From Obrimoposthia wandeli (lineage: Eukaryota): a stretch of 64,000 bases of DNA. Under the pieces are notes generated by a model. The model was given only the letters and a program-made list of their open reading frames with translations. It searched no databases and had not been told where the DNA came from. Of this stretch, positions 13,170 through 64,000 are shown piece after piece (position 1 is the stretch's first letter; each line of letters begins with the position of its first letter). The stretch is from NCBI GenBank assembly GCA_977020255.1, contig CDROCS010003392.1, forward strand, positions 62,001 through 126,000. The letters are read 5' to 3'. The translations under genes were made by a program, and so were the position numbers.

Positions 13170-13339
13170 TTTCTAATATGTTAATAAGTTTTAAGTTCAT
13201 TTTTACTTTTTTCAATTTAAACTAAACACATACGCACTTTCCTTCGTCTACATTATAATTACTTTATTTTATGATTAGTTTTTATTTTAATATGTCAATT
13301 CATGTATTTTCTATGACAATTTTATAAAGATTTTTCTCA

Positions 13340-14600: not shown

Positions 14601-16260
14601 AATAGTCTTGTTTGGTTTTGTGAGTTTTTTATAGTTAACATTTGTAGAACAGTATTATTGTTAGTTGATCTTAAGTTATATTTGTGACTTTTTACTTTTG
14701 TATTTTCCTCAGGTATTTCTCGACATCTGTTTATATGTGTTCTTATTTCTTTTGATTTTGGTTCATTGTCGAGTTTAGCTGTTATGTTAGTTCCGTTGGT
14801 ACTAATGACTGTGTATGGTTTTTTGTATGGTTTTGATAATTTGTGTGACAATCCTACATTAATTTGTGGATTGTGAATCATTACTTTACTTCCGCTTTTT
14901 ATATTTGATGGCTTAGTTCTTCTATCATAATATTCTTTGTAATTCTCTTGTATATTTTTTACAAATAATTTAGCTTTTTCGAATGCATATTTATTCTTTC
15001 TATAATTTCTATTTTATATTCAGGTATTTCTAGGTACTGTGTAGTAGGTTGTAGTAATGTTAGGTCAATAGGCATTTGAGGATCTCTGAGGAACATAAGG
15101 TAAAAAAGTGTTTCTCCTGTAGATGCATGTACTGATGTTCTATATGCAAAAAGGCATAGAGGTATATGTAAATCCCAATCTGTTTTATTGTTGTTTGTGT
15201 ATGATGTCATCATATCTTCGAGGGTTCTATTATATCTTTCTACTAATCCGTCGGTTTGAGGGTGATATGGTGCTGTATTGATCTTTTTTATGTGAAATAT
15301 TTCAGCTATTGACGCTAATACATTATTTATAAATTCAGGACCTTTGTCAGTTAAAAATTTTCGGGGTGCACCGAAAGTAAAAATACTTTTGTCGACTAAA
15401 ACCTTCGCGATGGTTTCAGCCTTATGATCATGTGTTGGAAAAGCCTCTGACCATCTTGTAAAATAATCAGAAAATACTATTTATATTGATTTCCTCGGGT
15501 GTTTCAAGTAATGGTCCCATTAGATCCATGGCAACAGTTTCCATGGTGGCTGATGGATACAGTATTGGTTTTAAAGGTATTTTGTGGTACGTAAAGTGTT
15601 TATTCGTTTAAGACATATTTCACAAGTATTGCACCAATTTTTTACATCTTCTTTCATATCAATCCAATAATATTTTAAATTTAATCTCGAATGTGTCTTT
15701 TTTGTTGAAAGATGTCCTAAAGCTCCGTTGTGATATTGAAGGAGTAATTGACATTGTATTTTTTTAGGAATAACTAGTGAGTACAAATTTTTATCGTTTA
15801 AATAATGTAAAATATTGTTACTGAATTTATAACGAGATTCATGAATTTTCAAATGTTTTCTTAATTTTTCATCTGTTGGAACTTGATTGATGGTTATGCA
15901 TTTAGTTATTTGTTGTATTTCCGTATCTTTGCTTTGAAGATCGGTGATTACTTTTTCATCATATTTTGATATAATTATTGTGAAAAGATTTAATTCGGTA
16001 TCATCTAAAGTCATTGTGTTTATATCTTCTCTTATTCGAGATTGACAATCTGCATTAGCGTTTGAGTTACCTTTTCTATATTTTATCTCGATATCATATT
16101 TTTGAAGAATTAACGCCCATCTCATTAATCTAGATGTTGTATCTTTATGATTTAGTAGCCACTGTAGGGGTCTTTGATCGGTATAAACGTAAACTTTTCG
16201 ACCTAATAAGTAATGTTTGAAATGTTCCATAGCAAAACAAATAGCTAGGCATTCTCTTTC
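14597..16260 (-). pseudogene. Ty3/gypsy pol (RNase H, HHCC finger, DDE integrase), frameshifted
   Basis: Motifs HYLLGRK.YVYTD.RPL, SRLMRWAL.LQ.YD.EIKYRKG, YH....GH...C..C, VAMDLMGP, TDKGPEF, YHPQTDGLVERYNRTL and W..HIP.CLFAYRTSVHASTG. Confidence 0.93.
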
Positions 16261-16289
16261 TATAGTTGAATAATTGGTTTAGCAGAAAG

Positions 16290-26377: not shown

Positions 26378-37573
<11,196 letters not shown>

Positions 37574-41031: not shown

Positions 41032-42978
41032 TGTTGGGGTTTCTAATTGAAACCATATCCTCGTACGAGGCTCCCAACGTGAGTTCTGTAGTGATAGGGC
41101 TTACAGATGGATGTGGCCTACCTGTATTTACTTCACTTAGTTCTTGTCTCAAATCTGAAGGTTTTGGATGTTGTTTTTGTTTGATGCTGTGTGTAAAGAG
41201 TTGTTTTCAAAATAACTCAAAGGGAACCCTAAAATTAATGTGATGAAACAGAGTCGGATCCAAGCGACGCTAACGATGCTCCTCTAATAATACCAGGGCT
41301 TAACAATACGCTGAAAACACCAGGGCTCGGAAAGCCACTACGTGGTTAACTCGCGGCTAACCTATATATAAGTGGACTCGACGATCTTGGGAAACTGGTT
41401 ACATAAAATACTAAACTCGTAGCTTATCTTAACACTGATTTATTTCCTCAATACACCAACTGTAAGATACTAAAAAGGGTTAGAGAACTACTAAACTCTG
41501 GAAATTAGGGCGACACTCTATCCTTTCACAATTATTACACGTCACAATTATTATTGCCTCGTCATTCGGCCCTGGAATCGAATCCTTTGCGTCTCCTTAC
41601 GTTTATGCTTCCTCATGTTTAGATTGATTCTCCTTTGTTCGGATAATTCAGCTCGGCACTCTTCGCTGATTTTCTCATTTCTTAATTTTTCTGAGCTCGA
41701 CCTTAGGCTATTTCAACTTTACAGTCCTTTCTTCTTTATCGACTTCTGTAACAATATCTTATGTTTATTTTGCACAATTGATTACAATTATCCTCGCGAA
41801 ATACTTCATACTCAATCGATATTACACAAGTTGAGGTGGAATAATTTCAACTTCGCTGTTTCGCTAAATTCAATATTACACAAATTGAGGGTAAAATAAT
41901 ATCACTCATACTACTAAATCTGCTTTCCAAAATCCAACATGATCTGACGTCCACGTTTCTATGCGTAATTCCTAACACGGATGCTGACGGCTTGACGGGC
42001 AGCATTTGAGCGATGCTGTTAACGATCCTTATTGTCCTGTCTGCTGATCAATTTGTCGTGGCTTGTCTTTCTTCACTATCCGCTCTTGTTTCTGCTGTTA
42101 TTCCGCGTTGCTGGTTTTCACTATAGTTCTGTACTGCAATGCGATAAACAATCCTTTTTATGGTTTTGCTTACCTACTAAATGAACAGCGGCCGGATGTC
42201 GACGAAATTCTTCACCTCGAAATGAAATGCAGTGAGATCAGAATGCAATAACAAAATTTCGCTCTGCAATTCTTTACAATCTATTTATAGGATTACGTTT
42301 CCCCTCAATAAATCAGATGTTGCTACTTGGAGTCCACGATTCTTCTCAAATTGGACGTCAGATCATGTTGGATTTTGGAAAGCAGCTTTAGTAGTATGAG
42401 TGATATTATTTTACCCTCAATTTGTGTAATATTGAATTTAGCGAAACAGAGAAGTTGAAATTATTCCACGAAGCTACTGTAGTCTTGGCAGTTCGTGGGA
42501 CTATCCAGCTGTTTCTTCCCATGAGAAGCACCGCTGTCCACTTGGGAATTTCTTTAAATAGTTCCACCAAATCCACTTCTCTCGTCTTGGTAATTCTACG
42601 GGGCTGTCCAGGTGGCTTTTGAGCGATCGATATTGTCTTCTCTGTAATTCCTGATCGTTTTCCCTGACAGTCTTCGTTAATTTTCAGTACAACTGTACAT
42701 TTTTCTTTGCAATTTTCTCGGTCTTAATTCTTTTCTCTTCGACCTTTTTTCACACTTTTCATGTACTTTATATACTTTTATGTACTTTATGTCCTTTCAC
42801 ATCCTAGTCCTCTTCAAGGTCTTAATTTATTTTAATATTTCCTAATTCAATTTATTTTAATGTCTTTTTTATTAAAATTCTTAATTTAATTTTAACCATT
42901 TAAGGTCAAATTTCTAATTATAAAATAACATTTTATTTAATTTAATTTTACAAATTTTCCTTATTTAACTATTCAACA
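41032..42978 (-). mobile_element. Probable solo LTR (1947 bp), diverged member of the 2-kb family
   Basis: The plus-strand left end TGTTGGGGTTTCTA..CCAACGTGAGTTC..GTGGCCTAC..TCTGAAGG is the family 3' terminus. The right end ...TTCAACA is followed inward by the AGACCTTGAA motif. Flanks ACAAT/AAAAT give no clean TSD. Confidence 0.65.
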
Positions 42979-43526: not shown

Positions 43527-45437
43527 TGTTAGGTTTAGGAATTGTTAAAAATTAAATAATTAATTGATTTTATAGTAAAACAAAAATCCTTGAAAGCAAG
43601 GTTAGAATTAAATAAATTTTAAAAATCGAAATTAAAATTATTAAAGTTAAAATATGATTAAATATTGAGACCTTGAAAGGTCGTGTGTAATGCGTTAAAT
43701 GTGTATAAAAATTAAAGGTCTCAAAAAAGAAAGGCCAGATAATAGATTGCCCCTAAAAAAGAAAGAATATTGAGAACACAGAAGCCAATTAAGAATAATT
43801 GAGCCCAGTGGAAAAGGAAAAATCAAAACGGGAACTTAATCCATTAGTGGAGAAATTGAAAAAGGAATATAATCCATTAGTGCCATTAGCGCCACTGAAG
43901 AAATCCCGAAGAATCCATCAGCGACATCGGCAATCCAGCGACTGCGAACGAGGACAGCCGCCATCATCTGGAGGTAATAGCACTTATACTAAGTGCAAAA
44001 TTATTAGTTTTGTAGACAGCCGTCATCGCCAGGATAGAAAAGATATAAGTGTGATTACAAATACCTGATTCCGCAAAATTTCCGAGAAAAGTTGAGAAGC
44101 AGAAATTGAGTGGAGAATAACAAATTGAGTCGGTGAGATTCATAAAAAGGAAAAAAGAAATTAATTATATACAGGGCAACCATCTACACCTAGAACGAGC
44201 AAACAGGAGACAGCAGATCGAAGGAAACGATAACTGAACTGCTACGAAATCCAAGCAGTAGCTATCCGACCACCTTGCCTACCGAGACCGGACTGCGTGA
44301 ATCAACCTGACGAAAATTACACGAGACGTCTCCGCAAAACCAGATCGAGTTCTATCGGACAATCCGCCGATCGATTCTATCTGCGCGAATCAACCGGAGC
44401 GAGCTTCTTCAACAATCTCTGCGAAGGAGGGTAAGAGTAGCGTGTGGGGAGAAGTTGATAGTATTTAGCAAGATCGAATTCTGAGTTTTACATATAAAGG
44501 AATTTTAAAAGAATTGTAAAAGAATATTGAAATATAAATTACCCCGTTGACTATTATATTAAAGAAATTTTAAAAGAGTTTTAAAAGAATATTGAAATAT
44601 AAATTACCCCGTTGAATATTATATTAAAGGAATTTTAATAGAATTGTAAAAGAATATTGAAATATAAATTACCCCGTTGAATATTATATTAAAGGAATTT
44701 TAAAAGAATTGTAAAAGAATATTGAAATATAAATTACCCTGTTGAATATTATATTAAAGGAATTTTAAAAGAATTGTAAAAGAATATTGAAATATAAAAT
44801 ACCCGTTGAATATTATATTAAAGGAATTTTAAAAGAATTGTAAAAGAATATTGAAATATAAATTACCCCGTTGAATATTATATTAAAGGAATTTTAAAGA
44901 ATATTGAACCATAAACTATCCCATTGGAATTTAATATTGATCACAGTTTTTAAAGAACATTGAAAGCTAAATTGGTTCAGTTATATTTCCTATATTTCTA
45001 GCAAACAACTGGCCCATCCTTTTAGAGCAACAGCTCTGTAAAACCTATAAACTTAATTTCCGTATTGGTTGGAGTAAAGACTCTAGCAACCAACTAACTC
45101 TATCTTAAAATCGATACGTGGTTCATCCTCACTTGTGTAGAGACTTACAGAAGTCTTAGGAATTTTACTGTAACTTTTTAGAAATACGTACGTAAACGTA
45201 TTGTTTTGTTTTAGTCTAGTGTGTTAACAATAAACGATTTCCTACATTAGAAAGCATTGTTCTAAACCCTTCAGATTAAGAGACATTGAAAAACAAACAC
45301 CTTCAGATAAGCATTGAGACAGGCAACTATAACATTAAGTAGGCCACAACCATCTTTAAGTCCTGCTTCTAAAAGAACTCACGTTGGGGCCCTCCGCATT
45401 CAAGAGGATCTATAAATTTCATATAGAAACCCCAACA
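43527..45437 (+). mobile_element. Solo LTR, 1911 bp, with 4-bp TSD TAAG
   Basis: TAAG|TGTTAGG ... CCCCAACA|TAAG. TATAAAA at 43704, donors at ~43974 and 44431, ~6.5 x 65-bp tandem array (44496-44910), AATAAA at 45229. Confidence 0.9.
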
Positions 45438-46539: not shown

Positions 46540-47800
46540 ACATTCTAAAAAAGAGTCAGTGTCCCGAGCAACGGTTTTGACCTCACAATTAAATTTGTTG
46601 TGATAATTCTGTAATTTAATATATTTGAGCTCAAACATTTTAAGTTTTGAAATGTATAAGACCGTTTGACCTATATAATTCGGTCGATCGAGTCAAATAC
46701 TCTGTTTGCCTAATAACACTGCTACCAAGTCATCTGCAATTGTTAAACTACGCTTGAAGTTGTTCTTGCTAGTATATATTATTAGTTTACGCTCATTATT
46801 GCGAAACCGTAGACAAATACGTTTCCGAAAGTTCTCTACAGTTTTTTCAGAGACTATTACATTTCAACTTGTAAAAGTCCCAATCAACTTTAATAATGGC
46901 CAAATTATGTTTTCTCAAATTCTTCTCAATATAGTCTTTAAACACTGAACTTTGACTAAACCTTTGCTCCCAACTTCATGTAGAATTGAAGAAGATGCCA
47001 ATGCACCACATAATTCAATTTGTCTTCATGAGTTACCAATAATTTCTTAACTTTTGAATTAGGTAGATATTGATGAACGGGTGCTACTGGAAGATCATCT
47101 AATTTATCATGCACATTGAGAGGGACTTTTAAATCAACCACAACCAAATAACCGATGTTTGTTGACATTGTATCAACAGTAGCCAAATCTGTCATAAACT
47201 TATTCAACTCTTTCTCATCATAAATCCACTTAAAGTTGGCACGAGGTAGATGTTGAGTAAGACCCCACCCATACAAATTATTAATGTCGATATACAGAGC
47301 CTCCGTGGATGGATTTTTGACAACATGATGTTTGTTGACAAAAGTAATTCCACTGCGTATTTAAGTATATGATGCAAATCATATCCTTTGAGAATTTGAA
47401 ACACGATGGGAATGCGTGGTTTTTTATGGAGTCGACGGTCAAAGTTACAAAAGTTGCATGCCGCTCCCATTTATTGCCCTGTAAGATGATCGTGATCTCT
47501 GACTAACTTAGACTGTGTACCAAACAAACAACAATATCTACAAGAATTAAAGTTAACCAAGTCTATGCCAGTCATGATAATTGCTTGATGAGCATTAAGA
47601 TCATACCACGGTTTGACAACAGTGGTTCCTAATTCCTTTAATTTTATCATGAAATTTAAAATAAATTTTGTATCGGAAAATTTATGATATAGGGTTATAT
47701 TGAGGCCTAAGAATAGTAGAATACTGCCAAAGCCAGTAGGTGAATACTCTCATTTTGGTCATGCAAAGTTAAAATTGATTCAAAATCAGCATTCCTGAAT
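46540..47800 (-). pseudogene. Maverick/Polinton-type protein-primed DNA polymerase B remnant
   Basis: RDHDHLTGQ.MGAAC..CN, IPIVF..LKGYDLH, LYIDINNLYGWGLTQ.LP...F.W and GYL..VDL..P..VHD.LDD.PVAP. Homologous to 55470-56800. Confidence 0.75.
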
Positions 47801-49620
47801 TCACATGTCGTTATAAATGCTATCTACCTTAAGTTACATTGTAACTAACGTTGTGGTAACATGTGTGTAGACAAAATAATTATTTTTTTCTCGTTCATAC
47901 TAACATAGTGAATTCGAATACTCCTAAACTACTAGTATAATTATTTAACTTAAAGACAAAACATACACAACAAATATACGATAACCACACAAGTCCTATA
48001 CGTTTTAAAAATTCACAAACTAGAAACTTTCTTAATAAATGAAATAACTCTAGTCCCAACTAAAATAACACAAATTTATCAAAGTGAAGTAAAACAGACA
48101 TATATAGTTTTTTGAACATGAAGTTAATGTACTTTTAATTTCCCAATTCAACATAACATGTAAGTAATATTGTACCATTTTCTTAATAATTTACCAAATA
48201 ATGATAATAATTATCCAAAGACACTTTATAAATCAATAAAATTGAGAAATTAACTGATGCATCTACTAAACAGGAACATCTTTAATACAGCCTCAATTTA
48301 TTGATAATTGTAAAAATTATTATTCAAGGACGCTCCCTAAATCAGCAACTTTGAGTAGTTAACTGCAGCATCTTCTAAACAAGAACATCTTTAACAGAGC
48401 GCCAATTTATCGATAATTGTGGGAATTATTATTCAAAGACTCCCCAAATCAGTAAAGTTTGTATAAATATTATGTTTTAAAATCTTAAATCAGCAAAAAA
48501 GAATCCTTTGAAAATAATATATATGAGAAGTTTAGCAATTAATTTTGTTTGGACCCTTTCTCATCAAATTATTTTCAAATATGTGAAGAAAACGTTGCAC
48601 AAATTTTAATGAAAAATACAACTTATGAGGATTTTGTTAAAAAACTATTTTTTTTAATAATGATATAAATTAAGATGAGGAATGACACTAACAGTCCTAC
48701 AAATGAGGGGAAAAAGCTAAAAATGTTCTAGATAAATTTCTCGGATTTAGAAAGGTTTTCAATATCCGATAGACACCTTGAATCTTTTCTTTCTAATTGA
48801 ACGAAACTTTAGATTTAGTAGTGAATTGGACAAATACTCCTGGACGAAGACGTTCAAGAGAGAATAACTTTATTTGAAAAAAGCATCTTTCAATTTTACA
48901 ACACAAAAGTGATTGGTGTTAACAGCTGAGTAATTTATCTAAATCACTCTAAATATTTTCTTCCTAAATAGTATTTCATACAAAAATCTAAAGCAATTTT
49001 CAGAGTTATAATTAAATAGTCATTCATGATATCAGATTTAATTACTCTGCACATGTACTTTAGTTTCAGACGTAAAAAGTGTAGAAAAATTTTATTAGAA
49101 AAGAAAACAATTGATTGAAAATTGAACGACAAAACTCAATATTTTCATCTTGTGCATTTTACAATTGCTCCATCGCGACTCATTATTCTTTTAATAACCC
49201 CACTAAGAAATTAGAAACGCTGGGGATATATTTAATGTTGTAGACAGATTCTGAACAAGGATACTAATACGAAATTTGGTTCTTTTTTAATTTGTAATCA
49301 GATTTTTGTCACAAATTGGTTGTATATTATTTAGAAATGTTTGTTTAGTATTTTAATAATGATATTTTATTGTAACTATGATTTCTACCCATATGTTTGA
49401 GAATATAATGAAAAGGATTCTTTGTATTTAAGGACATTTGATCCATTTTTTTACTTTTTTTATTAATTATTTTAGAGCTTGAAAAGTTTTTTTAAAACAA
49501 TTTTAATAATGGTTTAACATTTTTCTTTACAAAGTTTGTTTAAATAAATGTTTCCAATAGTATTTTGTAAACTATCGGAATTAAAATATTTTTTTCTAAT
49601 AAAATTAAATACATTTTTAA

Positions 49621-51890
49621 ATGAATTCTGTTATTTGTTCATGTGAAAATGTCGAAGTGGATAATGGCCCAATAAAAGTTTTCCCCGTCAACTACAAGTG
49701 GCACTCGGAAGGAGAAGTTAAAGGTGGGGATAACTCAATTAGAACAACAAAGTACCGCTGGTATAACTTCTTTTTCCTGAATCTACTCGAGCAGTTCAAA
49801 AGATATTCGAATCTTTTCTTCATTCTGTGCGTTATTCTCAACTTCATCCCGTATGTAAGTGCTTTTTCGAAAGAGACTGCGGTGATTCCGATCATGTTTG
49901 TATTGATTACGACGCTGCTCAAGGACGGTTACGAGGACATCCAGCGCTGGATGTCAGACCGCAGGGTCAACAACAAGGCTGTGCAGATGTTCGACAAGTG
50001 AGTCATTCTCTCGCCACACGTTTCAACTTCAATCCACTCAGATATCGTTCGTATTGATCAGATATTGTACGTATGCCTTGACATCGACCACAACTTGCTT
50101 ATTGGTGCTGGTGCTTTCATTAGGGCGAGTTGGAAATTGGAATTTCAATATTTTGACATCTTCCTGGTCTTTCTCACTTTGTGTGGAGATATCTCCGGAA
50201 GGTTTCAGGATATGTGAATGAAACCTGGCAAACGCAGTCTAGACGTCGATAACATCTTGCTTGCCAATTTTCAGTTCGATAGGCCTGTTGTATCTTCAGG
50301 GAATTGAACCCTTTTGGAACCGCGACTGTGAAAGATGACGTGATAACAGGGGAGCAGCTTTGTGACTTATGTATGTCGCCAATTGATTTACAGTTGCTTT
50401 ATTCACCTTTGAGTGTATTGATACGTTAAAATCTGTACACATACTTTCCTTAAGAATTATTTACAACACCGCCTCAATGTGGTATCTACCTTAGTCCCTG
50501 AAGCTAATGGTCCAGGGTATGCAACTTTCATTTTTCTTGTACATTCATATTAAAGTTTTCTCCTCAGTTTTCCATCCTACCGTTAGAAAATGTCGTTAAG
50601 TCGCTAATTTTACGTGTTCTCAGAATTTTCAGCTTTTATTCACCGTCAGGGACAGTTTTCAAAGGAATCGACAATTATCCCGCGATTCAGTATCTTCTTA
50701 TTTTGGGATTGAATATTGATATGTCATCTTACAGCTGCGTTTCGTCATAACTAAATCCGTATGAATGCTATTATAAATCTTTATTATTGTTCTATAATAA
50801 TAATTTTTAATGAATGTAATTTGTGATTTTTCGTAAATTTCTTGGTGTAGCACGCTTTCAGTGTTTTTGTGTTTCTATTTCAAAAACTTTATATTTTATT
50901 TTACAACAGTCAGATAGCACTATTTTTGGCATACAAGTAGACGGTGTTTGCAATTTTTCCGATAAACTAAATCGAGGAGTAAATGTTGTTTTCGTTTTAG
51001 AAATTTTAAAGTTGTAGTTTTTATATCCTTCCATTTTTCATTTGATCATATACTTGGTTTTGGAATCTCAGCAGCTCCACAGTCTGCATAATTTGAAAAT
51101 TTTGATATGGATCAAAGATCATTATAATTTTATTCGGGTAAAAAGTAATTTTCGGTCTTGTGGTGGTCAGGACGACGCGGAGGTTTGAATTGAAAAGCTG
51201 GAGAGATGTGCAAGTTGGAGACTTTGTGCGCGTGGGCTCAGACGAGCGCATCCCGGCGGATTTGCTTGTGTACTACACCAGTGACAAGCACAGCGGCGTC
51301 TGCTACATCGAGACGACGGACATCGACGGGGAGACTAATCTGAAGCAGCGACACGTCGTGGACCCAGCCATGCTCAAGATGCAGGCCACCGCCGACAGCG
51401 GAGAGGTGAGATCTTTGCTCCCGAGGAGCGTCCTAATTACTGCCCTGCGCAGACCGACATCGAGGACTCCTTCAAGCACCTCTTCTTCGAAGTGGACTCA
51501 CCAAACAAGGAAATCTACAAGTTCAATGGGAAGATGTGAGTGTTTTTCAGGCGTTAGTCACTGATTGGTGAATGTGGTTTGTGTTGTGCAGATTCGGAGG
51601 GCAGTCCGGGATGCTGGTGCGCACCGTGAACAACACGAACCTGGTGATGCGAGACACTCTGCTGCGTAACACGCAAGAGATCCGCGGTGTTGTCATCTAC
51701 GCTGGTAAGACATGACTCCCACCACCCACTCTGCTGACTGACTCTTCCTCCTCGCCAGGCAACGAGACCAAGGTGCTGATGAACAACATGAAGCCGAGGT
51801 TCAAGAGGAGCATGCTGGAGGACCAGCTCAATGTGGACAACCTCTGGTGTCTCGGCATACTGGTCATTGTGTGTCTGATATCAGCCGTAG
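49621..51890 (+). CDS. P4-type phospholipid-transporting ATPase, ATP10-like; first five exons 49621-49997, 51171-51405, 51453-51535, 51592-51704, 51759-51890; the rest is not in the window
   Basis: NSIRTTKY..NFF..NL.EQFKR.SNLFF, EDIQR..SDRRVN, W.DV.VGD.V, YIET.DIDGETNLKQR, LRNT..GVVIYAGNETK and FKRS.LE...N.D.LWC. Confidence 0.9.
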
Positions 51891-53959
51891 GTGAGTCGCT
51901 CTTAAGGACCACTGACACAGCAATGCCCTAAATAAGGACGTAAGAAAGGCCATGAATAATTGGTTGATGTCTTAGAGTCATAGTAGGGAATGTGGCACTT
52001 CTGGCACAAAATTGACGATATCCCGGGGAACCAGCATCTCAGATATTGCACAATCGCTTATTACCATGACAACCACTAAGTGTATTATGACATGGAAACC
52101 ATATAAGTTCCCCGAGTCATAAGTGGTTACAGTGACAACCGTATATGTGTGTATTGTGTTGACAGTGGTTGTCTTGGTTGGTATGTGTAGGTCAAGGTCA
52201 CATGTTGAAATTTGTTTAAATATTTAGAATAAAATGTAAAATTCAAAAATTCTATATTTTTAAAATTTTTATGAATTTAATTGTTTTTAAAATTTAATAT
52301 TTAAACTGCAAATTTAGTTTACATTTACAATTTAAAACTTAATTTTTAGTATACATTTAAGTGCTTAATTATTTTTATATTAAATTTTTACAGAGATGCG
52401 AATATGAATAAAATCCATTAAATATATTAGTCGTTTAATTATAATTAACAACAGAATTTATTATAGTAATAAAGTATACATTTAAAAGAAAATAGTTGTT
52501 AATACATTTTTACACAGTTATAAATATTAATAAAATCAATGAAATATAACAGTATTTATCATAAAGCTCATTAAAATATTAAACTATAATATGTATAGAA
52601 AAGCAGTTTATCTAAATGAAATTATAACTAACAACAACAGATATAATGTTGAGAAGATTTCACCAAATAAATTAAGCATGTTAGTGTGAGCCTTGACTTT
52701 TCATATGCAAAGCTTGTATCTTACGTAACTAAATGTCAATATATGTGTATATTCTAAGCCAATTAAATTGTTCAAGTAGAGTATATAAGAATAAAACATT
52801 TTTCATTTCTTGTCAGTATTTTAACATGAAATCAATAAGGGATACAATGAAAACCCATATATTGAAGAGCGGCGGTTCACTGGAAGATAAAATAGAGCTG
52901 ATTAAGCCATTTCTCAAAAAAGAAGCACTAGAGCTTAGAAAAAATTCGTTTTTTTTTGCTTCTAGAGTAATGAAAACCCTATCATCATTCCACACCCAAC
53001 TTGGAAGTAGATACTATTCATCAGAATGCAACATCTCTTTTGGACTTTTCGTTTTTTTAAATAAATTTTAATTATGTCGTGTGTTTCTGTTTTTTTATTG
53101 TCTTTGACTCCATTGATAAAATAATTTTTAATGTATGTGTTTTCACTTTTTAAAATAAATAATGTTACATAATATCTATATCAATAATGTGTATTTGATC
53201 TTTATTACCTCACAAATTAAATAGCTCAATAATAGAATAAAATATTTTAAATACATTTTTTGTTATATTGTTTTCAAAAGTAATTTTAAATTAACATTTT
53301 AAATATCAAAATACTTAAAACAATAATGTTAAGGATATTTATAAAAATTTTATTTAAAAAAACGTAAATTACATATAGATAAATATTTGTTAAATCGTTA
53401 AAACTCATTCAATATTCCATCAAGAATCTTCCATATCGGGGTTTCGGTTCCACAGGTACTGACTTCGTATCCTTGAATATTTATACATAGATATCATTGC
53501 TTTTCTGAAGGATATTCATTAACAAAAATTTCATTCTCACGCTTGAAAATGGCTTCATTTCCTTTGATTAAATTTGTTTTCCTGAAATTGATATTTGATT
53601 CCATGTTGTTTGAAAAAGTTATTGATTCAGTTTACATCTACTGAATTCAAATTTGAAACCTGATAGTAAAATTTAAGCCTCTCTAAACTAGCAGGAAAAA
53701 TAAAATTATAATTTTGAGGTTTCTTCAAAAAGTGCATCTCATATTCATAATAATTATGAATTCGTTGAGAAAGATTTTCCTCATTCATATTGGCACCATA
53801 CATAATCATTACAGATAATAATATCAAATAATCAATTGTTTATCCTATAAATTTCTATTCTAATTGGATAATAATATTTTTTTTCAATTAAGTATAAAAT
53901 ACTAAACATTTTTATATTATTCAATCATGCTTCACCATATTAAATTAGTGAATATAAAT

Positions 53960-54519: not shown

Positions 54520-56800
54520 TTCTAGAGAATGATACTTGTTAAATTTGTATAATACTTCAAACTATATTAAGCACCAAATCTGCCCAAATATTAAAAGTTA
54601 TGCGATCGAGGTGATGAGTCAACTTACATTGGAACATGTATCGAGTTTCAAAGCAGCTAACAAACAAAGTTGGAGACCACAATCACATGATGAGCGAGTA
54701 CCTTCGAGCAGCGCATTCAAAATGAAACTTATCAAGGAGACTGAACCGATCCTTTCCTGTGATTTTTCACAATTTGATGGGATACGATATGCACCACATA
54801 CTTAAGCATGCGTCAAGTCAATTTCCTGATCTGAAGTATTTCTATCATTCCTAAATCGACAGAGAATTTCAAGTTATAATGGCCATCCTTAAAAGGGATA
54901 TAATTACTGAGCACAGATAGCATGCCATTAAATATATCCTTATTTAAATGAATTGCATTATCATAGAATAGATTTTCCGGTTAAATTAACTGCGATATCG
55001 AGATTTGAACACATGAATAACTTGAGAATTAATGTATTCAAATATAATAAAAATATCCCAGTTAATGTAATAGAGGAAGAAAAATTTAAAAATCCCTTTG
55101 TAAATGTGATTTAAAGGAACGAAAATGAGAAGACTCCAGTCAACTTAATTTGGCCCGAGCATAATAATAAACTCCACTTTGCTGCAATTCCCAATTTAGA
55201 TCGTCTTCTAAATTTAGATAATAGAGCTTTCCCATTTAGGATAAGGTATAAGTGGTGTCATATATGTTTGCATGGATTCCCACTCGAGCTCTCTTATAAC
55301 TAACATCTGATGTCATGTACACTGAATCCTGATGACAATACGTTACATAGCATGGTTAAGGAAAAGGATGTAAAATTCAGTGATTGAGTAAAATGCATAC
55401 CCTTTCAATTCAGGATGTATACGGATTTTGAATCAATTATTGCAATGCATTGCCAGTATGAGAGTATTTACCTACTGGCTTCGATCATGACTGGCATAGA
55501 CTTGGTTAATTTTAATTCTAGTAGATATTGTTGTTTGTGTGGTATCCAGTCTAAGTTAGTCAGATATCACGATCATGTTACGGGGCGATATCTGGGAGCG
55601 GTATGCAACCTTTGTAACTTTGACCGTCGACTCTCTAAAAAACCACGCATTCCTATCGTGTTTCATAATCTCAAAATATATGATTTGCATCTTATACATA
55701 AATATGCGTTGATACATTAAGCTCATGGAAAATTTTTATACACTTCAAACGTCGGAGAAATATTTAACTGCATTCTGAATTATAGATTCTCTGTAGTTTT
55801 TGAGTGCGTCTTTAAAATATTTAACGGCTTCTTTAAATGCATGACTAATTACACAGTCAGTGTTCTTAGCTTCGACAAATGATAATGGAATTTTTCCTCA
55901 TAAATTTGCGAAACACTTTGTCGATTTACAAAACTACAACTGAAATCCCACACATAACTGAATTTGATGGTGTACTTCAAGACTATAATGAGGTAATTGT
56001 CGAAATCTCCATAGAGTATATGCTTTATCATATGAAGTTGGACATTTATATTTTAGCTGATGTATTTAAATCCTTTCCTGTAAAATCTTTAGTGAAATAT
56101 GGACTAGATCTCATACTTTTATTTAGTTTACCTGGTCTTTCATGGGAAACGACAATTAAAACGTAAGATTAATGTCGATATACTGCAAGATCCCGTGATG
56201 TATCAAATGTATGATTATGGTATTCGCATTGGAATGAATTTTGTCAGCAAACTTCACGTTGTCAAAAATCAATCCGCGGAGATTCTGTACATCGACATTA
56301 ATAATTTGTAAAGGTGGGCGCTTACTCAACCTCTAGCCCAGGCTAACTTTACGTGGTTGTTTGATGTAGAATAGTTGAATGAGTTGATGACAGATTTAGC
56401 AACTGTTGTGACAGTTTCATCAAATGTTGGCTATTTGGTTGATATCGATTTCACAATCCCTCCCAATGTGCATGATACATTGGATGATTTTCCGGTGGCA
56501 CCCGTTCATCAATTTCCACTTAATTCTTAACTTAAGAAATTATCGTTAACTCACGAAGAAAAGTTGAATAATGAGATGCATTGGATGCTTCTTCAAGTAT
56601 AATCAAGTCACTCGAATTCATCGATCTATAAGCTTTAGCGTATTTTTACAATTGCAGATAACTTGGTAGCAGTGTTATTAGGAAAGTAGATTATTTGTCT
56701 CTATCGACCGAATTATATAGGTCAAACAGTTTCAGACATTTCCAAACTCAGAATGTATGAGCTTTAATATATTAAATTAGAGAAATATCGCAGTTGATTT
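54520..56800 (+). pseudogene. Second, longer Maverick/Polinton pPolB remnant
   Basis: LHY.RI.FPV...ISRFE..N.L.INVF, YHDHVTGRYLGAVCN.CN, IPIVFHNLK.YDLH, DVFKSF, LPGLSWE and YIDINNL..WALTQPL. Confidence 0.78.
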
Positions 56801-57083
56801 AATTGTGATATCAAAATCGTTGCTGGGGACACTTACTTTTTTTTGTTTACTGACAAAATATGGTAACTTTTCGCCTGTTGGCTTTGAATATAAGCTTCAA
56901 TTATTGGCGGCTTCGCCATTTTATTTTCTTAAATGTATTATTAAACTTGTCTTGGCTTCGTATGTGAAATCTATTAGTTGTCTGGAATCATCTCTAATAT
57001 TTACTTCAATATTGTTTATGGATAAGAGAGCAACTGGAAGATACATCGGTTAAACTATACGAATACCGATAACATCTCCAATT

Positions 57084-57356
57084 TTAGTTTGACTTTGAGA
57101 TATCGATATTGTTCTCAAAAGTGGAAATTCGTAGTCCTCCTACAAGCGTTGGGTCTATTAAACTAGTATAAATATATAGCTTATTAATATAATTTAAAAG
57201 TTTGGCCTGATTTTTAGCTTTTATGGTTTTTACTATATGTGTTTCAAAGAAATTTCCTGTTAAACCAAGGTGTTTTGTGAGTTTATCATCAAAGGATTCC
57301 CGTGGTTTTCTTATATTACTTTTGAGGTCGAATGTGAAATTCATGCACAAATGCAC
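57084..57356 (-). pseudogene. Possible Maverick minor-capsid-like remnant, cut by the LTR at 57425
   Basis: LYIYTSLIDPTLVGG-LR recalls the 'YVY.D.I.P..VG...LR' pattern I associate with Polinton penton proteins. It is adjacent to pPolB. Motif recall only. Confidence 0.3.
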
Positions 57357-57903
57357 GAAATTTCACTCCACACACATGCAGTTTTTTAAAGGACAGTGAT
57401 ATCCGCTTCAGAGAGTGGGGTATATGTTGGGGTTTCTATACGAAACTTGGTATAGAGCCTCTTGAGTGCGGAGGGCCCCAACGTGAGTTCGATTAGAAGC
57501 AGGTCTTAAAGTTGGTCGTGGCCTACTTAGTTTTATGGTTGCCTAATCTCTTGTACTATCTGAAGGTATTTGATTTGATGTCTCTTAGTCTGAAGGGTGT
57601 AAAAACAACTTGTTCTAATGTAGGAAATTGTTTATTCAAAATTCACGTAACTAACACCACAATACGTTTATGTACGTATTTCTAAAAAGTATGATAAAAT
57701 TCCTAAAGGACTTCTGTAAGTCTCTACAAGAAGTGGGGATGAACCACGTATCGATTTTACGTTCAGGTGATTAAGTTTCTTAGGTTTAGTCTTCTCACTC
57801 AGGTTGGTTAATCTATAACGCAACTCTCTTAAATTTCTTCGCTCCTACTTCTTATCTCTAGCTAATATTTCTTTGTTCCTTACTCTCTCTGTGTGTGTTT
57901 GAC

Positions 57904-58338
57904 CCGAATTGTCTACTGTAGACAAGGGATCTCCTAAAAACCTAATTGTCAAGATGACAATGAAAACTTACTCCTAATTGTCAACTACGGACAATGAACG
58001 AACCGAATTGTCAGCTAGTGGACAATGAATCTTACCGAATTGTCTACTAGGGACAATGAATATTTATCCAAATTACCAACTAGGGGCAATGAATGAACCT
58101 AATTGTCAGCTAGGGACAATGATCTTACGGGAAAAAACGTCTGGTAAGTTTCCTAATTGTCGCTGGGGACAATGAATAAATGTCCGATCCTAATTACCAA
58201 CTAGGGGCAATGATTGTGGTAAAGAGACAACGATCCTAATTACCAGCTAGGGGTAATGAATTTATGTATTATTTTAAATGTAGAATTACCAACTAGGGGT
58301 AATGAATATATCCTAATTGCCAACTAGGGGCAATGAAT
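57904..58338 (-). repeat. Array of 12 stem-loop units (6-bp stem, 5-8 nt loop) separated by non-identical spacers
   Basis: Units start at 57904, 57941, 57973, 58003, 58035, 58068, 58098, 58152, 58189, 58235, 58281 and 58312. Confidence 0.9.
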
Positions 58339-58443
58339 GAACCTAGTCGGTGGTCTTACCAGTTACTCGCTGATTCCTAAACACAGTGGGATGTCCGCTG
58401 CAGTTTCCGTATGGAGCGCTTGCGAGAGGTTTGGTATGCACGC

Positions 58444-58920
58444 TTGATTTTTTTGGACTGAAAATACTTTTTTGGACTTGGAATATTTCTTTGGACTGAA
58501 AATACTTTTTTGGATTAAGAATACTTTTTTGGATTGAAAATACTTTTTTGGATTGAAAATATTTCTTTGGACTGAAAATATTTCTTTGGACTGAAAATAC
58601 TTTTTTGGATTAAGAATACTTTTTTGGATTGAAAATATTTCTTTGGACTGAAAATATTTCTTTGGACTGAAAATACTTTTTTGGATTAAGAATATTTCTT
58701 TGGACTGAAAATATTTCTTTGGACTGAAAATATTTCTTTGGACTGAAAATACTTTTTTGGATTAAGAATATTTCTTTGGATTGAAAATATTTCTTTGGAC
58801 TGAAATTATTTCTTTGGACTTGGAATATTTCTTTGGACTGAAAATATTTCTTTGGACTGAAAATACTTTTTTGGATTAAGAATATTTCTTTGGACTGAAA
58901 ATACTTTTTTGGATTGAAAT
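58444..58920. repeat. 19-20 bp tandem array (~24 copies) in LTR B
   Basis: GGACTGAAAATATTTCTTT and GGATTAAGAATACTTTTTT variants. Confidence 0.95.
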
Positions 58921-59716
58921 CCAATTACTCGACCTGCGGTCAGGGAGTTGATTCTGAATTTGTGATTGTGGATTGTCAACTATTTGGTTCTCCTTATATG
59001 CGGTTCTTCCTGTCAGTCAACGACAGCTGAAATGAGATTAAAAGTTATTTGACTGCACAAAATGTGCTTACCTTTTCTTGATTGACGGTTTGATTGCTGG
59101 AGAATCTTCTTCCTGTCAGTCAACGGCAGCTGAAAAACTAAATTTGATTTTACTGCACGAAATGTGCTTACCTTTTTTCTTCTTGATTGACGGTTTTAAT
59201 TAACCGTTTTTCTTTTTAATTATTCTTATTTTTTGTTCGTTTTTGTTAATTAACTTTAACTTTTATATATTTTCGCATAATACACGACCTTCGTGGTCCT
59301 CCTAATTTTACCCTAAATTTCACTAATTTTACTTCTAAAACTTAAATTAATATTTTAATTCAATTTTCGACCTTGCTTTCAAGGATTTTTATTTTAGTAT
59401 TTAATCAACTAAAATATTTAATTTTCTTAATTCTCAACCTTAACATACCTCGGGGGTTCCAAAAAAGTTACGTCCCCGGAACGTATCGATTTTACTTAAA
59501 TAAGCCTTTGGCTGTTGATTTTAGGTTCATCCTACAAAATCAATCATTCAACTTCAACAAACATGCCCAAAAACAATTTTTTCAAAATCTCGGTTTTCCA
59601 GTGGGAAACATAATATATAATTTGGAGCAAGTCTCAAACCATACATTATTATTTATACACAACTAAAAATTTACACACAAAATTACAGATTAGGAAGGAA
59701 AGAAGGGAGGAAAGTT

Positions 59717-60247
59717 TCAGTTATCGTATGTTAGGTCAATTGTTATTGTCGGCTGGTTCCGACTGGTCAGGTAGCGTAGAACCTGCTCCAGGGGAAGGTC
59801 GGGAAAGGACGGACTGTCCCCGTTGTACAAATGGAGTTGCTGGCTCCGGGTCAAATGCGGGCTGTCGATGAATAGGTCGAACTGCTGCCCGTTCATGGCA
59901 TGGCTTTCAATCCAGTGCCGTCTGGCCTGGAACCACGAGTGGCAGTCTCGACTAGACCGCCATCTCTCGCGGACGCCCAGTTGTGTGTCGCGCCGGCGTG
60001 CGAGACACACGTAGCATTGGCAATGGATGCCACCAATGCAGCTGGCAGGCGATCGGGTGCCTTTGTGTCTTCCGCGGCTCTGGAGTGTCCATTTGGCGAA
60101 GGGTGTCCGGCACAGTGGACAGGTGATTTGTCCGGAGGTTCGAACCTTGGTCCACAAATAGAGGCACTCCTCGTGAAATTTGTGACGGCAGCCGACAGGG
60201 GATGCTGATACCGCCCAAATCTTCTCCATGCATACGGAGCACAACAT
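59717..60247 (-). CDS. RING-H2 protein 3 (~176 aa), putative E3 ubiquitin ligase
   Basis: CSVC-x13-C-R-H-KF-H-EE-C-LYLW...CPLC, then C-x5-C-x-C-x2-C. Acceptor TTTTCTCATGCAG directly precedes the ATG at 60247. Confidence 0.85.
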   Translation of the reverse strand: MLCSVCMEKIWAVSASPVGCRHKFHEECLYLWTKVRTSGQITCPLCRTPFAKWTLQSRGRHKGTRSPASCIGGIHCQCYVCLARRRDTQLGVRERWRSSRDCHSWFQARRHWIESHAMNGQQFDLFIDSPHLTRSQQLHLYNGDSPSFPDLPLEQVLRYLTSRNQPTITIDLTYDN

Positions 60248-60588
60248 CTGCATGAGAAAATGACTCCTTTCAATTTGGGGTTCACCGTTCTCATCGTTAA
60301 TTTAAATTTTATTTCAAAACGAATCCTTAGTTATCTAATCCTACCGAGTTTTGTTTCGATTTTAGGCATGTTTACGCATTCACACTAAACATAAAAAATT
60401 GTCTTTTTTAGAAATTCAGTATAATAATTACAATTTCAGTTAAACATCATACATAAAAATGGTAATGGTCAATTTACAGTTCACAAGATTATATAATTAT
60501 GATTACAATTATGGTAGCTAATTTATCGCGGTATGCGATACACAGGGTAGTTCATGATGTCACGTTCAAGTCAGAAAGTTACCTTCGA

Positions 60589-60893
60589 TTATTGTTGGGG
60601 ATTGGGCTGGCCTGTGCTTCGCTCCTCCACGCAGAACGAGCACCAGCAATCGCAGATGGTTTTCCAGCAGTGTACGATGGGTACCACTGCTTGGAGGCTG
60701 TCTTGGTTGTACACGTAGTGTACTGAGAAGGTCGCTCTGCACATTGGGCAGGTTGGGAAGTCGAGGGGTTGTTGCTGTTTGCGATGGGGATCCACGTCTC
60801 GAGGCATTCGACGTGGAAAAGGTGGTCGCAGTTGTTGGGCTTGGTGTAGAAGTCCACGATGCTCTCGTAGCAGATGGAACATTCTCCAGACAT
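60589..60893 (-). pseudogene. RING-H2 protein 2, with one frameshift (real or assembly error) near 60765
   Basis: CSIC...CDHLFHVECLETW is in one frame and FPTCPMCR...CWKTICDCWCSFC in the next. Adding one C to the C4 run restores an ORF colinear with RING1. Confidence 0.8.
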
Positions 60894-60953
60894 TACTGTG
60901 GGAGGGTTGATGTTGAATTTGGGCTCGATTGAGGACTGGTGGTTGTGTGATCT

Positions 60954-61253
60954 TTACACAAAAGTGGTCTGATTTTGTCGATCTGACAAACAGTAATAAC
61001 ACCAACACTCTCCGAAATTCTTCCAGCAGAATACCACCTGTACATATACATCCCTTTGGTTGGGTTCTAACATGACGAATCTTGCGAATTGTCTTCTGCA
61101 TATAGGGCAACGAGGGTATGTTGGGTGTCCGAACTGTCCATAAGTTCTGATCCATGTCGATAAACATTCCTCGTGGTGTAAATGGTTGCAGGTTTCGGGT
61201 CTTGTTCTTCGTTCGGTTAGATCTTCTAAACATATTGGGCATTCTTCGGCCAT
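60954..61253 (-). CDS. RING-H2 protein 1 (99 aa), putative E3 ubiquitin ligase
   Basis: CPIC-x13-C-N-H-LH-H-EE-C-LSTW...CPIC, then CWKNFGECWCYYC. Acceptor TATTTAG lies 1 nt before the ATG. Confidence 0.88.
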   Translation of the reverse strand: MAEECPICLEDLTERRTRPETCNHLHHEECLSTWIRTYGQFGHPTYPRCPICRRQFARFVMLEPNQRDVYVQVVFCWKNFGECWCYYCLSDRQNQTTFV

Positions 61254-61376
61254 TCTAAATACATGATGATGATTAATTTCTACATGAGTTTTATATACTT
61301 CTACTATTTGTACAATCGCTTCTAGATATTTCTACATATTTCACACACTAATTTATCTACAACCTCCTCTGACTCA

Positions 61377-64000
61377 TCATATCTTGATGGGAGGCGGAGG
61401 TAAGGGTCGCAATTCCACTTCCTCCATGATGGGTGTGTCACAGCATCGCAATTCTTCGCATTTTCGTCGTATTCCTGGGCATACTTGACTGCCTTTTACG
61501 CACACGACTGTCAATAGAACCACTGCTGTTGATACTACGGCCATTCCAATTAGGGCATTGACTGCTGTTATTCCGCTGTCTGATGTTTTATAACCATACT
61601 TCATTTTGTTGTTTGTCGGTTCGAATGATATTTCCATGGGTTTTGATCGGTTTCCATGTATTATGTCCGATTTTCTAAAAATTGGGGGATTTGGGTGTTT
61701 TGTTTCTGATGGAACAGGTATTATTATTTTGGATTGGAAATGATGTTTGGGATCTAGTGGGATCGTTCCCCTCACTCTTGTCCTCTTAATAATTGTACTT
61801 TGGTTTCTGGGATTTAGCTCTTTTTCTTTCGCTTCTGTCTTTGTTTTGATCACTGTCGGTTTCTTGGAATGTCGTTTACTTTCGTTTACTTTTGCCTTCT
61901 TTTTGACTAGGATTGGTCTTTTGGGAATGATTTTCCTGGGTTTGATACTTATACCGTATCTGCGAAATCGACGGTTCTGGTATCTTAGAGTTATGTAGAA
62001 TATTTCACCTGTTATTATCATGATTATGGTCGAGGTCTCTGTAGAATTACTGGCAATTCGATTACACAGACATTCTGTGTTAAAATGTGGTACTAACATT
62101 TGGCTTTGGATTTCGAATCTGATTACGCCATCTGGGTTGGGACACATTACTGTCACGCTGTCAGTTTCTAGCAATATGAAAAATAACCTAACGGAATTCC
62201 ATACGGCTTTACGTCGTCTACCTGTGATCATAATCCTGTCGACAATTTTCCAGATGCGCTCATCTCTAGGCAATATTAATGACTTTGTTCGGATACTTTG
62301 GATAATCCGCTTCCTCTTTGATATTGTTATCCGTAGGTATAACACTCTTTCATGATGCAATAATATTAAATTGTAAACGGGTGTATTTTGGTCGATTTTT
62401 ATTCTGACCTGTCGAATGACATACAATTTCTGATCGATATTGTCAGTTGCTGACGTCTGTAGATGAATGTCTACTACGTGATTTGTTTTTAGTAAGGGAA
62501 TTTCTATGTATATTGCCCGTATAACGTCTTGTCTCCATTTACTGATCATGATCTCATAACTAGCCTTGGTAGTGGTGATTTGTACGATCAGCATGATTCC
62601 TATGATCGTTCGATTCCTAAACTCAGGAACTTCACTGAAACAAGTCAAATTACTCATATAGTACGGTCTTTCCTCAATATGTTCATATATCGTTGGCTGG
62701 TATTCTGGTGCTGGTTCATCTAGAAATGGTGGTCTTGGTATAATTGTGTTGAATTTTTGTAAGTTCATTTGACCTGTTCGTCTTGCGAGATCATGACGTT
62801 TTTTTTTTGATCTCGACTCTATCTTTGAACAACAAAACAAGATGAGTAATATTAATATTATAAATCCAATGATCAGTGCGAGTATTGGATTAACCAATTC
62901 TAGAATACCATAACGTACTGCTGGTATTCCTTTACTCTTGATGGTTAATATTTTAAATTTGTGTGCACTTTGGTTGGACATGTCACTGAGAAGCACTATT
63001 TTAGTTTGTCCAAATATGTAGTCTTCACATGTGACAACACTAATTCCATAATGTCCATTAAGTGTTATCATTTCGGTCGCTGGGACTATACACATTCGTC
63101 CTGGACATCCTTTTACACACATGATCATCACGGCTCTACTGTGGGATGTCTTGATTATTTCTAGGGTGTTGTCTAGATTTCTCAAATGTAAATTATATTC
63201 GGATAGTGTCATCAATTCGGCTTTACTGGTTGGCATGGCTTGCAGTACCAATCCAATTACTACTCCATAAATCAATCCTTGTGCAACGGTGCACAGGGCC
63301 TTGACCGACCTTTTGCAAAGCGTTTTAATTATCAATCGTTTGAGAGATATCTGTTTCTGATTGGTTCGTTTTATTGTCTGTCGTTGTTTTGACATCTCCT
63401 CGATTCCATCTCGTCCGATAATCAACTGTACCGGTTTTCCTTGTATCATCAACTTTCCGAATCCATTTTTGGCGGACAAGCATGTTTTATGTCCTTCCAT
63501 CGTTTCAATTATCACTCTCTTACTTCCATACTCACGTGTTTTGATGACATCGCCGTCGAATATATACGTTGGTCCTTTTGTATCAGCATCTTTTTGTATT
63601 TCCTTTACAACTCGTTTACTTCGCTTGCATCCGGCGAATGTTGTTGATATTCGGTCAAGTGTGCGCTGTCGGTCAGCTTCGTAATCTATTCGAAATTGAT
63701 TCAGTATTCTGTTTTGTGGGTAAAATATCGCTTCATTTACTATGTTGTCCTCGATCCTTTCGTCTAGATACACAAGCACTTTGTTTGTTGGTCCATTTGG
63801 TCTTTTCATCTTTACAAACTGAAATCTTTTACTGTCGGTTCTCATAGATCGAAGACATTTTCGGATGATCCATACATCAATTAGTCCTAACAACACTAAT
63901 AACATCATCAGTGCCGGTGTATGGTACTTTATGGTGTAATTGTGGATTTCGTTGAACCAGGAACTATTTCCGTGGTTGGAGCCTATTTCCTGTGCTCCCG
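61377..64000 (-). CDS. env-like membrane polyprotein (>873 aa, open to the window edge)
   Basis: The frame stays open upstream of the annotated Met (GAQEIGSNHGNSSWFNEIHNYTIKYHTPAL, two N-glycan sequons). It has five hydrophobic segments and no introns, and lies upstream of the RING cassette and LTR. Confidence 0.75.
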   Translation of the reverse strand, partial: GAQEIGSNHGNSSWFNEIHNYTIKYHTPALMMLLVLLGLIDVWIIRKCLRSMRTDSKRFQFVKMKRPNGPTNKVLVYLDERIEDNIVNEAIFYPQNRILNQFRIDYEADRQRTLDRISTTFAGCKRSKRVVKEIQKDADTKGPTYIFDGDVIKTREYGSKRVIIETMEGHKTCLSAKNGFGKLMIQGKPVQLIIGRDGIEEMSKQRQTIKRTNQKQISLKRLIIKTLCKRSVKALCTVAQGLIYGVVIGLVLQAMPTSKAELMTLSEYNLHLRNLDNTLEIIKTSHSRAVMIMCVKGCPGRMCIVPATEMITLNGHYGISVVTCEDYIFGQTKIVLLSDMSNQSAHKFKILTIKSKGIPAVRYGILELVNPILALIIGFIILILLILFCCSKIESRSKKKRHDLARRTGQMNLQKFNTIIPRPPFLDEPAPEYQPTIYEHIEERPYYMSNLTCFSEVPEFRNRTIIGIMLIVQITTTKASYEIMISKWRQDVIRAIYIEIPLLKTNHVVDIHLQTSATDNIDQKLYVIRQVRIKIDQNTPVYNLILLHHERVLYLRITISKRKRIIQSIRTKSLILPRDERIWKIVDRIMITGRRRKAVWNSVRLFFILLETDSVTVMCPNPDGVIRFEIQSQMLVPHFNTECLCNRIASNSTETSTIIMIITGEIFYITLRYQNRRFRRYGISIKPRKIIPKRPILVKKKAKVNESKRHSKKPTVIKTKTEAKEKELNPRNQSTIIKRTRVRGTIPLDPKHHFQSKIIIPVPSETKHPNPPIFRKSDIIHGNRSKPMEISFEPTNNKMKYGYKTSDSGITAVNALIGMAVVSTAVVLLTVVCVKGSQVCPGIRRKCEELRCCDTPIMEEVELRPLPPPPIKI

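Follow-up and report, generated by a model that had tools for sequence, protein, structure and literature searches.

A tandem array of 12 stem-loop units lies inside a long terminal repeat (LTR A) of the 64-kb window, the whole stretch of DNA that was analysed, directly behind a splice donor on the element's sense strand. The array described in an earlier note was confirmed; it is real, and its cores are probably under selection, judging from sequence variation among units and copies. Our tentative reading is that the array is a set of multivalent hairpins that would present YAG in their loops, bind a protein of the hnRNP A/B type and damp use of the donor. What stands of the earlier interpretation is a selected, repeated motif that is compatible with hairpins on the sense strand and follows a credible donor; its covariation argument and its packaging logic were not supported.

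Composition and extent of the array

Recounting of the arm types reproduced the numbers claimed: ATTGTC/GACAAT in seven units (one, 57908-57926, with an end mismatch), ATTACC/GGTAAT in two, ATTGCC/GGCAAT in one and ATTACC/GGCAAT in two. The period of 30-54 bp is also correct when measured from start to start. The proposed loop consensus CCUAGYU was retained only in part, being exact in 6 of the 12 loops, and YAG is what 11 of the 12 share; the self-complementary CUAG is present in 8. The loops are 5-8 nt long, and most units carry a second UAG or GG immediately 3' of the stem. The spacers between units (11-35 nt) have no alignable sequence. One word in the spacer of units 5 and 6, at 58141-58149, is the reverse complement of CTGGTAAG; its potential pairing partners are the donor at 58359 and the GTAAG at 58128.

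When the 64 kb were scanned with a unit model, the 12 array units scored 31-47 bits, a match that follows by construction because the model was built from them, and no further unit above 16 bits was found elsewhere in the window. Rfam gave no match at gathering score in the 64 kb, with families such as IRE, histone stem-loop, CTE and RRE, and no family over the array even at E up to 5.

Table 1. Coordinates of the array and of the features discussed with it (positions in the window, except for the metagenome loci; the slash in GTAAG motifs marks the splice point)
Feature	Position	Strand	Remarks
12-unit stem-loop array	57908-58334	(-)	element's sense strand; by pattern counts, folding and unit model
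Unit consensus, sense strand			UC + AUURYC + 5-8 nt loop + GRYAAU + UNGG
Unit stems, first six (+ strand coordinates)	57908-26, 57945-61, 57977-95, 58007-26, 58039-57, 58072-90		
Unit stems, last six (+ strand coordinates)	58102-20, 58156-73, 58193-211, 58239-57, 58285-303, 58316-34		
LTR A, probably 3' LTR	57425-59445	(-)	2021 bp, TGTT...AACA; 5' end aligns with start of LTR C
Sole TATAWAW of LTR A	59261-59269	(-)	176-178 nt from LTR start; site at 59269/59267
Putative 42-nt mini-intron	59130-59171	(-)	AAG/GTAAGC...TTTCAG
Putative 45-nt mini-intron	59027-59071	(-)	duplicate of the 42-nt one
19-bp tandem repeat	58447-58919	(-)	24.9 copies; upstream of donor
Splice-donor-like CTG/GTAAGA	58354-58362	(-)	end of G+C-richer stretch
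Four further GTAAG words, possible decoy donors	57879-58128	(-)	within the array or shortly after it; G at 58128, 58035, 57971 and 57883
Conserved 3' block	57425-57759	(-)	about 335 bp; 78-84% alike in LTRs A, B and C
AATAAA	57631-57636	(-)	kept in LTRs A, B and C, 209-212 nt from LTR end
Three RING-finger ORFs	59717-61331	(-)	between long ORF and LTR
Long ORF	61377-64000	(-)	at least 873 codons; several hydrophobic segments; open at window edge
LTR B	1-1485	(+)	start beyond window; G/GTAAG at 229, 28/56-bp tandem array 251-1015, conserved block
Solo LTR C	43528-45437	(+)	1910 bp; TAAG target duplication; G/GTAAG at 44431, 65-bp tandem array 44495-44902, conserved block
LTR D	41031-about 43000	(-)	more distant
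Control ATTRYC-N7-GRYAAT arrays, metagenome	L004 50-230; L008 140-253; L010 4122-4266; L013 1437-1906		

Variation among units and copies

Identity among the units is 0.83-1.0 at 8 of the 12 stem columns, and mostly 0.2-0.47 at columns that lie at least five bases outside the stems. Between about 24,000 and 29,000 contigs per run (three runs, one sample) align to 57330-58445 and thus indicate a high-copy element family, contig depth over the LTR not being the same as copy number. A further run, X5 (share 0.17), gave 2 contigs at 95-99% likeness, which were left out of account for habitat; the runs that contain this DNA come from one sample and one marine metagenome. Among the 40 variants listed of 54, 19 lie in the array region 57900-58340 and represent 17 variant places: 11 in spacers, 3 in flanks, 1 in a loop and 2 in stems. 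Spacers thus hold 11 of 17 places against 143 of 441 nt (P=0.006), a share that is possibly biased by the placement of contigs on the best-fitting unit, which masks some core changes. Of the two stem variants, that at 57926 restores the pair at the stem end in unit 12, and that at 57921 turns C-G into U.G, which is paired on the sense strand only. Seven of the 12 indels listed (of 15) fall within the array, four in loops, one in a flank and two in spacers; two of them sit in G runs bordering a loop, and none of the seven necessarily breaks a stem. Depth in run X1 drops about 100-fold between 58318-58355 (134278) and 58394-58431 (1363), in part by an edge effect, which suggests that the array is common to subfamilies with diverged upstream sequence.

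Pairing and predicted folding

On the sense (minus) strand 71 of the 72 stem cells are paired, a count that was reached in 0 of 500 shuffles, the control ignoring the kinship of the units. Stem pair 4 is found as G-C (eight units), G.U (two) and A-U (two), and stem pair 5 as U-A (seven) and C-G (five). Double-sided changes are therefore found at two of the six stem pairs; they come from about four substitution events, all of which are transitions. The two ATTACC/GGCAAT units do form an A.C mismatch on the plus strand and a G.U pair on the sense strand, as had been claimed; the pattern caught 11 units, of which 9 are fully paired on the plus strand and all 11 on the sense strand. Every one-sided change observed forms a wobble pair, and does so on the sense strand alone; such changes comprise two units (perhaps one event) and one copy variant.

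The earlier use of covariation as evidence could not be upheld. If no more than two RY positions per arm can vary, which is what a palindromic DNA site with four simply degenerate positions would show, about four transitions are compatible by chance in 8 of their 24 possible orders. When four random changes were placed anywhere in the stem, all sampled states paired in 1-6% of simulation runs, a figure that overstates the case because the array was picked for this very trait. As a control, 11 unrelated arrays caught by the pattern were considered; five had at least three arm types, and two of these five were fully paired on one strand. The covariation in the array is suggestive, and is weak and not decisive evidence for RNA structure.

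In isolation, the unit hairpin appears in the minimum-energy fold of 11 of the 12 units, but its predicted stability is low (-3.6 to -8.7 kcal/mol; z -0.2 to -2.5). When the sense strand was folded in context, the mean unit pair probability was 0.10-0.17 and only unit 12 exceeded 0.9, so that the unit hairpins are not the dominant fold there, as a conserved structure would be. The low probability arises because the arms and the CUAG words also pair across units. Folding of the whole array was at least as good on the opposite strand (z -4.8 vs. -2.9 for the sense strand). The unit hairpins would need to be favoured by co-transcriptional local folding or by protein binding. An alternative hairpin that joins the loop with the 3' flank was 77.8% paired without covariation and was rejected as a conserved fold.

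The host LTR and its element

The location of the array inside an LTR, which the earlier note had claimed, was borne out by the related solo LTR C with its 4-bp target duplication and by a PBS-like word. The bounds of LTR A, 59445-57425, were set because the start of LTR C aligns at 59445; its 3' end is common to four LTRs in the window, and its ends are of the TG...CA type. Seventeen contigs of run X1 run past the LTR end into a PBS-like word that starts with TGG about 8 nt on (agreement 0.84). The flanks of LTR A, GGTA and TATA, differ, and hence there is no target duplication.

Several smaller features of the LTR were recorded. Directly upstream of LTR A, at 59446-59460 (-), there is no clear polypurine tract, only about five purine-rich bases. 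At the LTR end, 57425-57485 (-), GTTGGGG can pair with CCCCAAC as a U5 inverted repeat that is kept in LTRs A, B and C, the LTR D version being GTTGGG, and the opposite strand of this stretch reads AAC/GTGAGT in all four LTRs. Four copies of the 14-mer TAAAATCGATACGT are present in the window, at 59481-59494 and 57746-57759 (-) and at 1154-1167 and 45105-45118 (+); three of them stand where the conserved block starts in LTRs A, B and C, and the fourth lies some 35 nt before LTR A. This 14-mer contains the palindrome ATCGAT and is a candidate promoter word or dimerisation site.

The RING-finger ORFs and the long ORF were assigned to the same element as LTR A because of strand, adjacency and the missing target duplication; we infer this from the layout, and gag and pol of the element fall outside the 64-kb window. 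The middle RING ORF, 60579-60953 (-), agrees in its own frame with only the first part of the RING model (positions 2-35 of 44), and the last cysteine pair lies in another frame. A search with the RING ORFs returned 19 loci at 28-42% identity, many of them labelled as giant-virus MAGs, and none of the loci carries the array; no homologue was found for the third RING ORF. The long ORF had no match in Pfam or among 1.84 billion representatives. Its atlas matches to viral glycoproteins score at most 0.83 and are merely a lead, and its single-sequence fold has a pLDDT of 38.

The window also holds other elements and genes. Another Gypsy-type element with RNase H and integrase, followed by unassigned ORFs, occupies 11414-16278 (-); one of these ORFs, at 11414-11869, is by visual inspection a candidate DEDD exonuclease. 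Two inverted, decayed copies at 46547-47801 and 55407-56844, 75-90% alike, have an endonuclease VII-like match and presumably resemble Polinton-type polB fragments. Host genes include a 6-phosphogluconate/hydroxyisobutyrate dehydrogenase-like gene (5900-7224, -), a Smad (26378-28750, +) and a P4-ATPase flippase (49621-51931, +); their exons are rich in G+C and their introns measure about 47-56 nt.

Donor, poly(A) signal and probable place of the array in the RNA

The sense donor CTG/GTAAGA, with its G at 58359, was found directly before the array as had been described. It is credible because its 10-mer is identical to that of the inferred host donor at 51702 (flippase; exons GVVIYA(G)-NETK) and because LTRs B and C share the order of donor and then array. 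Between TATA and AATAAA the sense strand of LTR A has seven GTAAG words against about 1.4 expected (0.68 per kb), some of the seven being duplicates of one another. The TATAWAW of LTR A stands at the same offset as that of LTR C (43704), and the putative mini-introns can be set beside host introns inferred in the window at 47-56 nt. The AATAAA is followed by CA and a G/T-rich stretch; it is itself free of variants among the 40 listed of 54, and its neighbours 57638 and 57639 vary. A candidate acceptor, TTACAG at 57714, is conserved in LTRs A, B and C, and ATTAAA occurs in LTR A at 59220 and 59200, where LTR C is unaligned. Among the 15 contig joints listed of 46, which are not joints of RNA, none links 58359 to a site behind the array.

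By the TATA box, the mini-introns and the conserved AATAAA, the array is probably part of an R region some 1.6 kb long. A place in U3, with a start near the DRE-like word at 57756, is less likely, and one in U5, by way of the ATTAAA at 59220 or 59200, is improbable; these weights are a matter of judgement. It had been argued that only unspliced RNA keeps the array. This argument is weakened: the array precedes the sole conserved poly(A) signal and is therefore probably also present in the 3' end of spliced RNAs. In R it cannot alone mark genomic RNA, and it is specific for unspliced RNA only if it lies in U5 or inside an intron closed within the LTR.

Related LTRs

Comparison of the window with itself revealed three related LTR ends. 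A common order was found in LTRs A, B and C: a G+C-rich stretch, G/GTAAG, a repeat array within 21-64 nt and the block of about 335 bp. The chance of G/GTAAG within a given 70 nt is 0.014 for each of LTRs B and C, which played no part in finding the pattern. Neither array, that of B (z -1.2) nor that of C (z +3.2), is hairpin-like; both are young, with 95-96% matches, and YAG is absent from the consensus of the 65-bp unit of LTR C. Homology to the LTR A unit was not accepted for the unit of LTR C (P=0.063) or of LTR B (P=0.77). No mini-introns are seen in LTR C. LTR D has no tandem array; it has a 118-bp inverted repeat with 98% identity (41836-41953 and 42352-42469) and TAG/GTAAGC between the arms.

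As the arrays of B and C are unrelated to that of A and not hairpin-like, the hairpin array is family-specific. This lowers the probability of a universal packaging signal and raises that of both a family-specific partner and a tolerant spacer.

Interpretation

In the mechanism that we tentatively favour, transcription would start from the LTR promoter near 59265, and R, some 1.6 kb long, would end at a poly(A) site near 57620. The twelve hairpins that follow the donor at 58359 would each present YAG in a loop of roughly 7 nt, with the decoy GTAAG words interspersed among them. The hairpins would load many copies of a host RRM protein of the hnRNP A/B type and the decoys would load U1; the loaded proteins would damp use of the donor and so help to set the balance between unspliced RNA, spliced RNA and polyadenylation in the LTR. 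On the predicted folds of isolated units, YAG is exposed in the hairpin loop in 11 of 12, YAG being a word of three letters only. Against this reading stand the weakness of the hairpins and their minor share in context, the fold of the opposite strand, the unlike arrays of LTRs B and C and the lack of mini-introns in LTR C.

The possibility was considered that the units are DNA sites, that is, inverted half-sites ATTRYC for a dimeric protein of the host or an anti-silencing factor encoded by the element; the array would then be an enhancer, insulator or anti-silencing target, with a start possibly near 57760 and the array in U3. This is somewhat unlikely, although symmetric degeneracy would explain the covariation without RNA. 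The conserved block begins in LTRs A, B and C with AATCGATA, which we take to resemble the Drosophila DRE promoter motif, and in LTR B this block is closely preceded by two TATAWAW boxes. However, LTR A has its single TATAWAW 930 nt before the array, and its offset agrees with that in LTR C. The commonest arm, CATTGT, presumably resembles a SOX site, but this core is lost in 5 of the 12 units. The variable loop length, the wobbles on the sense strand only and the conserved parts that are strand-specific and not palindromic (the YAG loop and the 3' GG) are suggestive of RNA, and a range of 5-8 nt argues against a dimer site of fixed spacing. Different repeats at the same place in related families, as described for VANC targets (PMC5735166), would fit DNA sites, and so would the palindromic repeated motifs described for Sirevirus LTRs, although these lie upstream of the TATA box and the array lies downstream of the best TATA (PMC2829016).

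An element protein, such as Gag nucleocapsid or a Rev-like factor, might instead read the hairpins as a packaging, dimerisation or export signal. The evidence for RNA applies equally to this reading, family-specific arrays suit a family-specific partner, the approximately 100-fold higher depth of the array than of sequence 60 nt upstream would mean sharing far beyond the subfamily, and the self-complementary CUAG loops could kiss between two genomes; moreover, packaging signals, as in RSV, need not be confined to unspliced RNA (PMC5035971). It is nevertheless unlikely, since an array in R would also stand at the 3' end of spliced RNAs, YAG is kept better than the CUAG palindrome, and no partner is seen in the window, which excludes gag and pol. 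A further, rather unlikely reading is that an undescribed family of large LTR elements carries a swappable, family-specific module behind the donor in the R of about 1.6 kb: the hairpin array in A, 28-bp and 65-bp repeats in B and C, and a 118-bp inverted repeat in D. The module of LTR A would then be a 12-valent RNA hairpin array that a factor encoded by the element reads as an identity tag of the family, for splicing, export or packaging, which would make it the RNA equivalent of the VANC target arrays. A neutral origin by tandem expansion at a tolerant site of the LTR, with a palindrome arisen by chance and arms matched by template switching and unit-level conversion, is quite improbable. 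The ordinary young repeats of B and C do suggest that this place tolerates any repeat, and ATTRYC-N7-GRYAAT arrays without relation to this one occur at 12 metagenome loci. However, the sharp contrast of core and spacer within a copy and among copies, the persistence of wobble states without repair and the simulated stem changes, with the overstatement noted above, argue against it.

Retention, export and packaging of unspliced RNA have been described for few families of invertebrate LTR elements. With 12 graded units and very many genomic copies, a binding code would be readable by covariation and unit binding, and family-specific RNA recognition becomes testable through the related LTRs, which bear different modules in that position.

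Comparison with known systems

Relatives of the array were searched for in viral, metagenome and prokaryote collections, which hold little animal DNA, and none was found. The unit, two-unit and LTR-end patterns had no matches in viral and prokaryote contigs. The three-unit pattern matched one viral locus, a coding repeat of a phage tail fibre that was rejected as a relative, and 12 metagenome loci, which had no BLAST match to 57001-64000 and were not taken as homologous. No such array was found in the literature covered, which consisted mostly of non-subscription papers.

The array, a putative cis-acting RNA docking strip, can be likened to retroviral leader elements without being assigned to any of them. 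The HIV-1 SL3-ESS3 silencer is present in a single copy beside an acceptor, whereas the array has 12 copies behind a donor inside an LTR, and its binding is putative. The two share a stem-loop some 25 nt long whose heptaloop carries UAG, and YAG as the minimal motif; in a preprint, hnRNP A1 is described as YAG-specific and as binding such a 25-nt stem-loop (10.1101/2023.08.17.553700). For the NRS of RSV, control of unspliced RNA by decoy donors is described (PMC9143442; PMC3082916). Like the array it lies downstream of a donor, and its decoy 5' splice site affects splicing and the use of poly(A) (PMC9143442); however, the NRS lies in gag and is no array of hairpins, and the two are likened by description and not by sequence. 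The foamy virus R resembles the putative R of LTR A in that its donor precedes the poly(A) signal, and does so in both LTRs; U1 binding and RNA structure are reported there to decide poly(A) use (PMC3694450). The addition of 462 nt between donor and signal abolished suppression in that system (PMC3694450), whereas in LTR A the main donor is 723 nt and the last GTAAG word 247 nt upstream of the signal.

Sirevirus LTRs also hold many palindromic copies, but these belong to plant Copia elements and have a CGG-CCG core upstream of TATA (PMC2829016). The array core is ATTRYC/GRYAAT, downstream of the only TATAWAW, with an asymmetric conserved loop. The VANDAL targets of VANC are likewise described as family-specific tandem repeats but belong to DNA transposons (PMC5735166). 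No sequence link was found to the planarian Burro, a giant Gypsy-like element, which is characterised by a giant gag-env-pol polyprotein and a Gypsy-type RT, the pol of the present element lying outside the window. The two share a long LTR element, tandem repeats and ubiquitin-related accessory domains (PMC6431247), and Burro may be regarded, by layout only, as the nearest described type (PMC6431247, PMC8532177).
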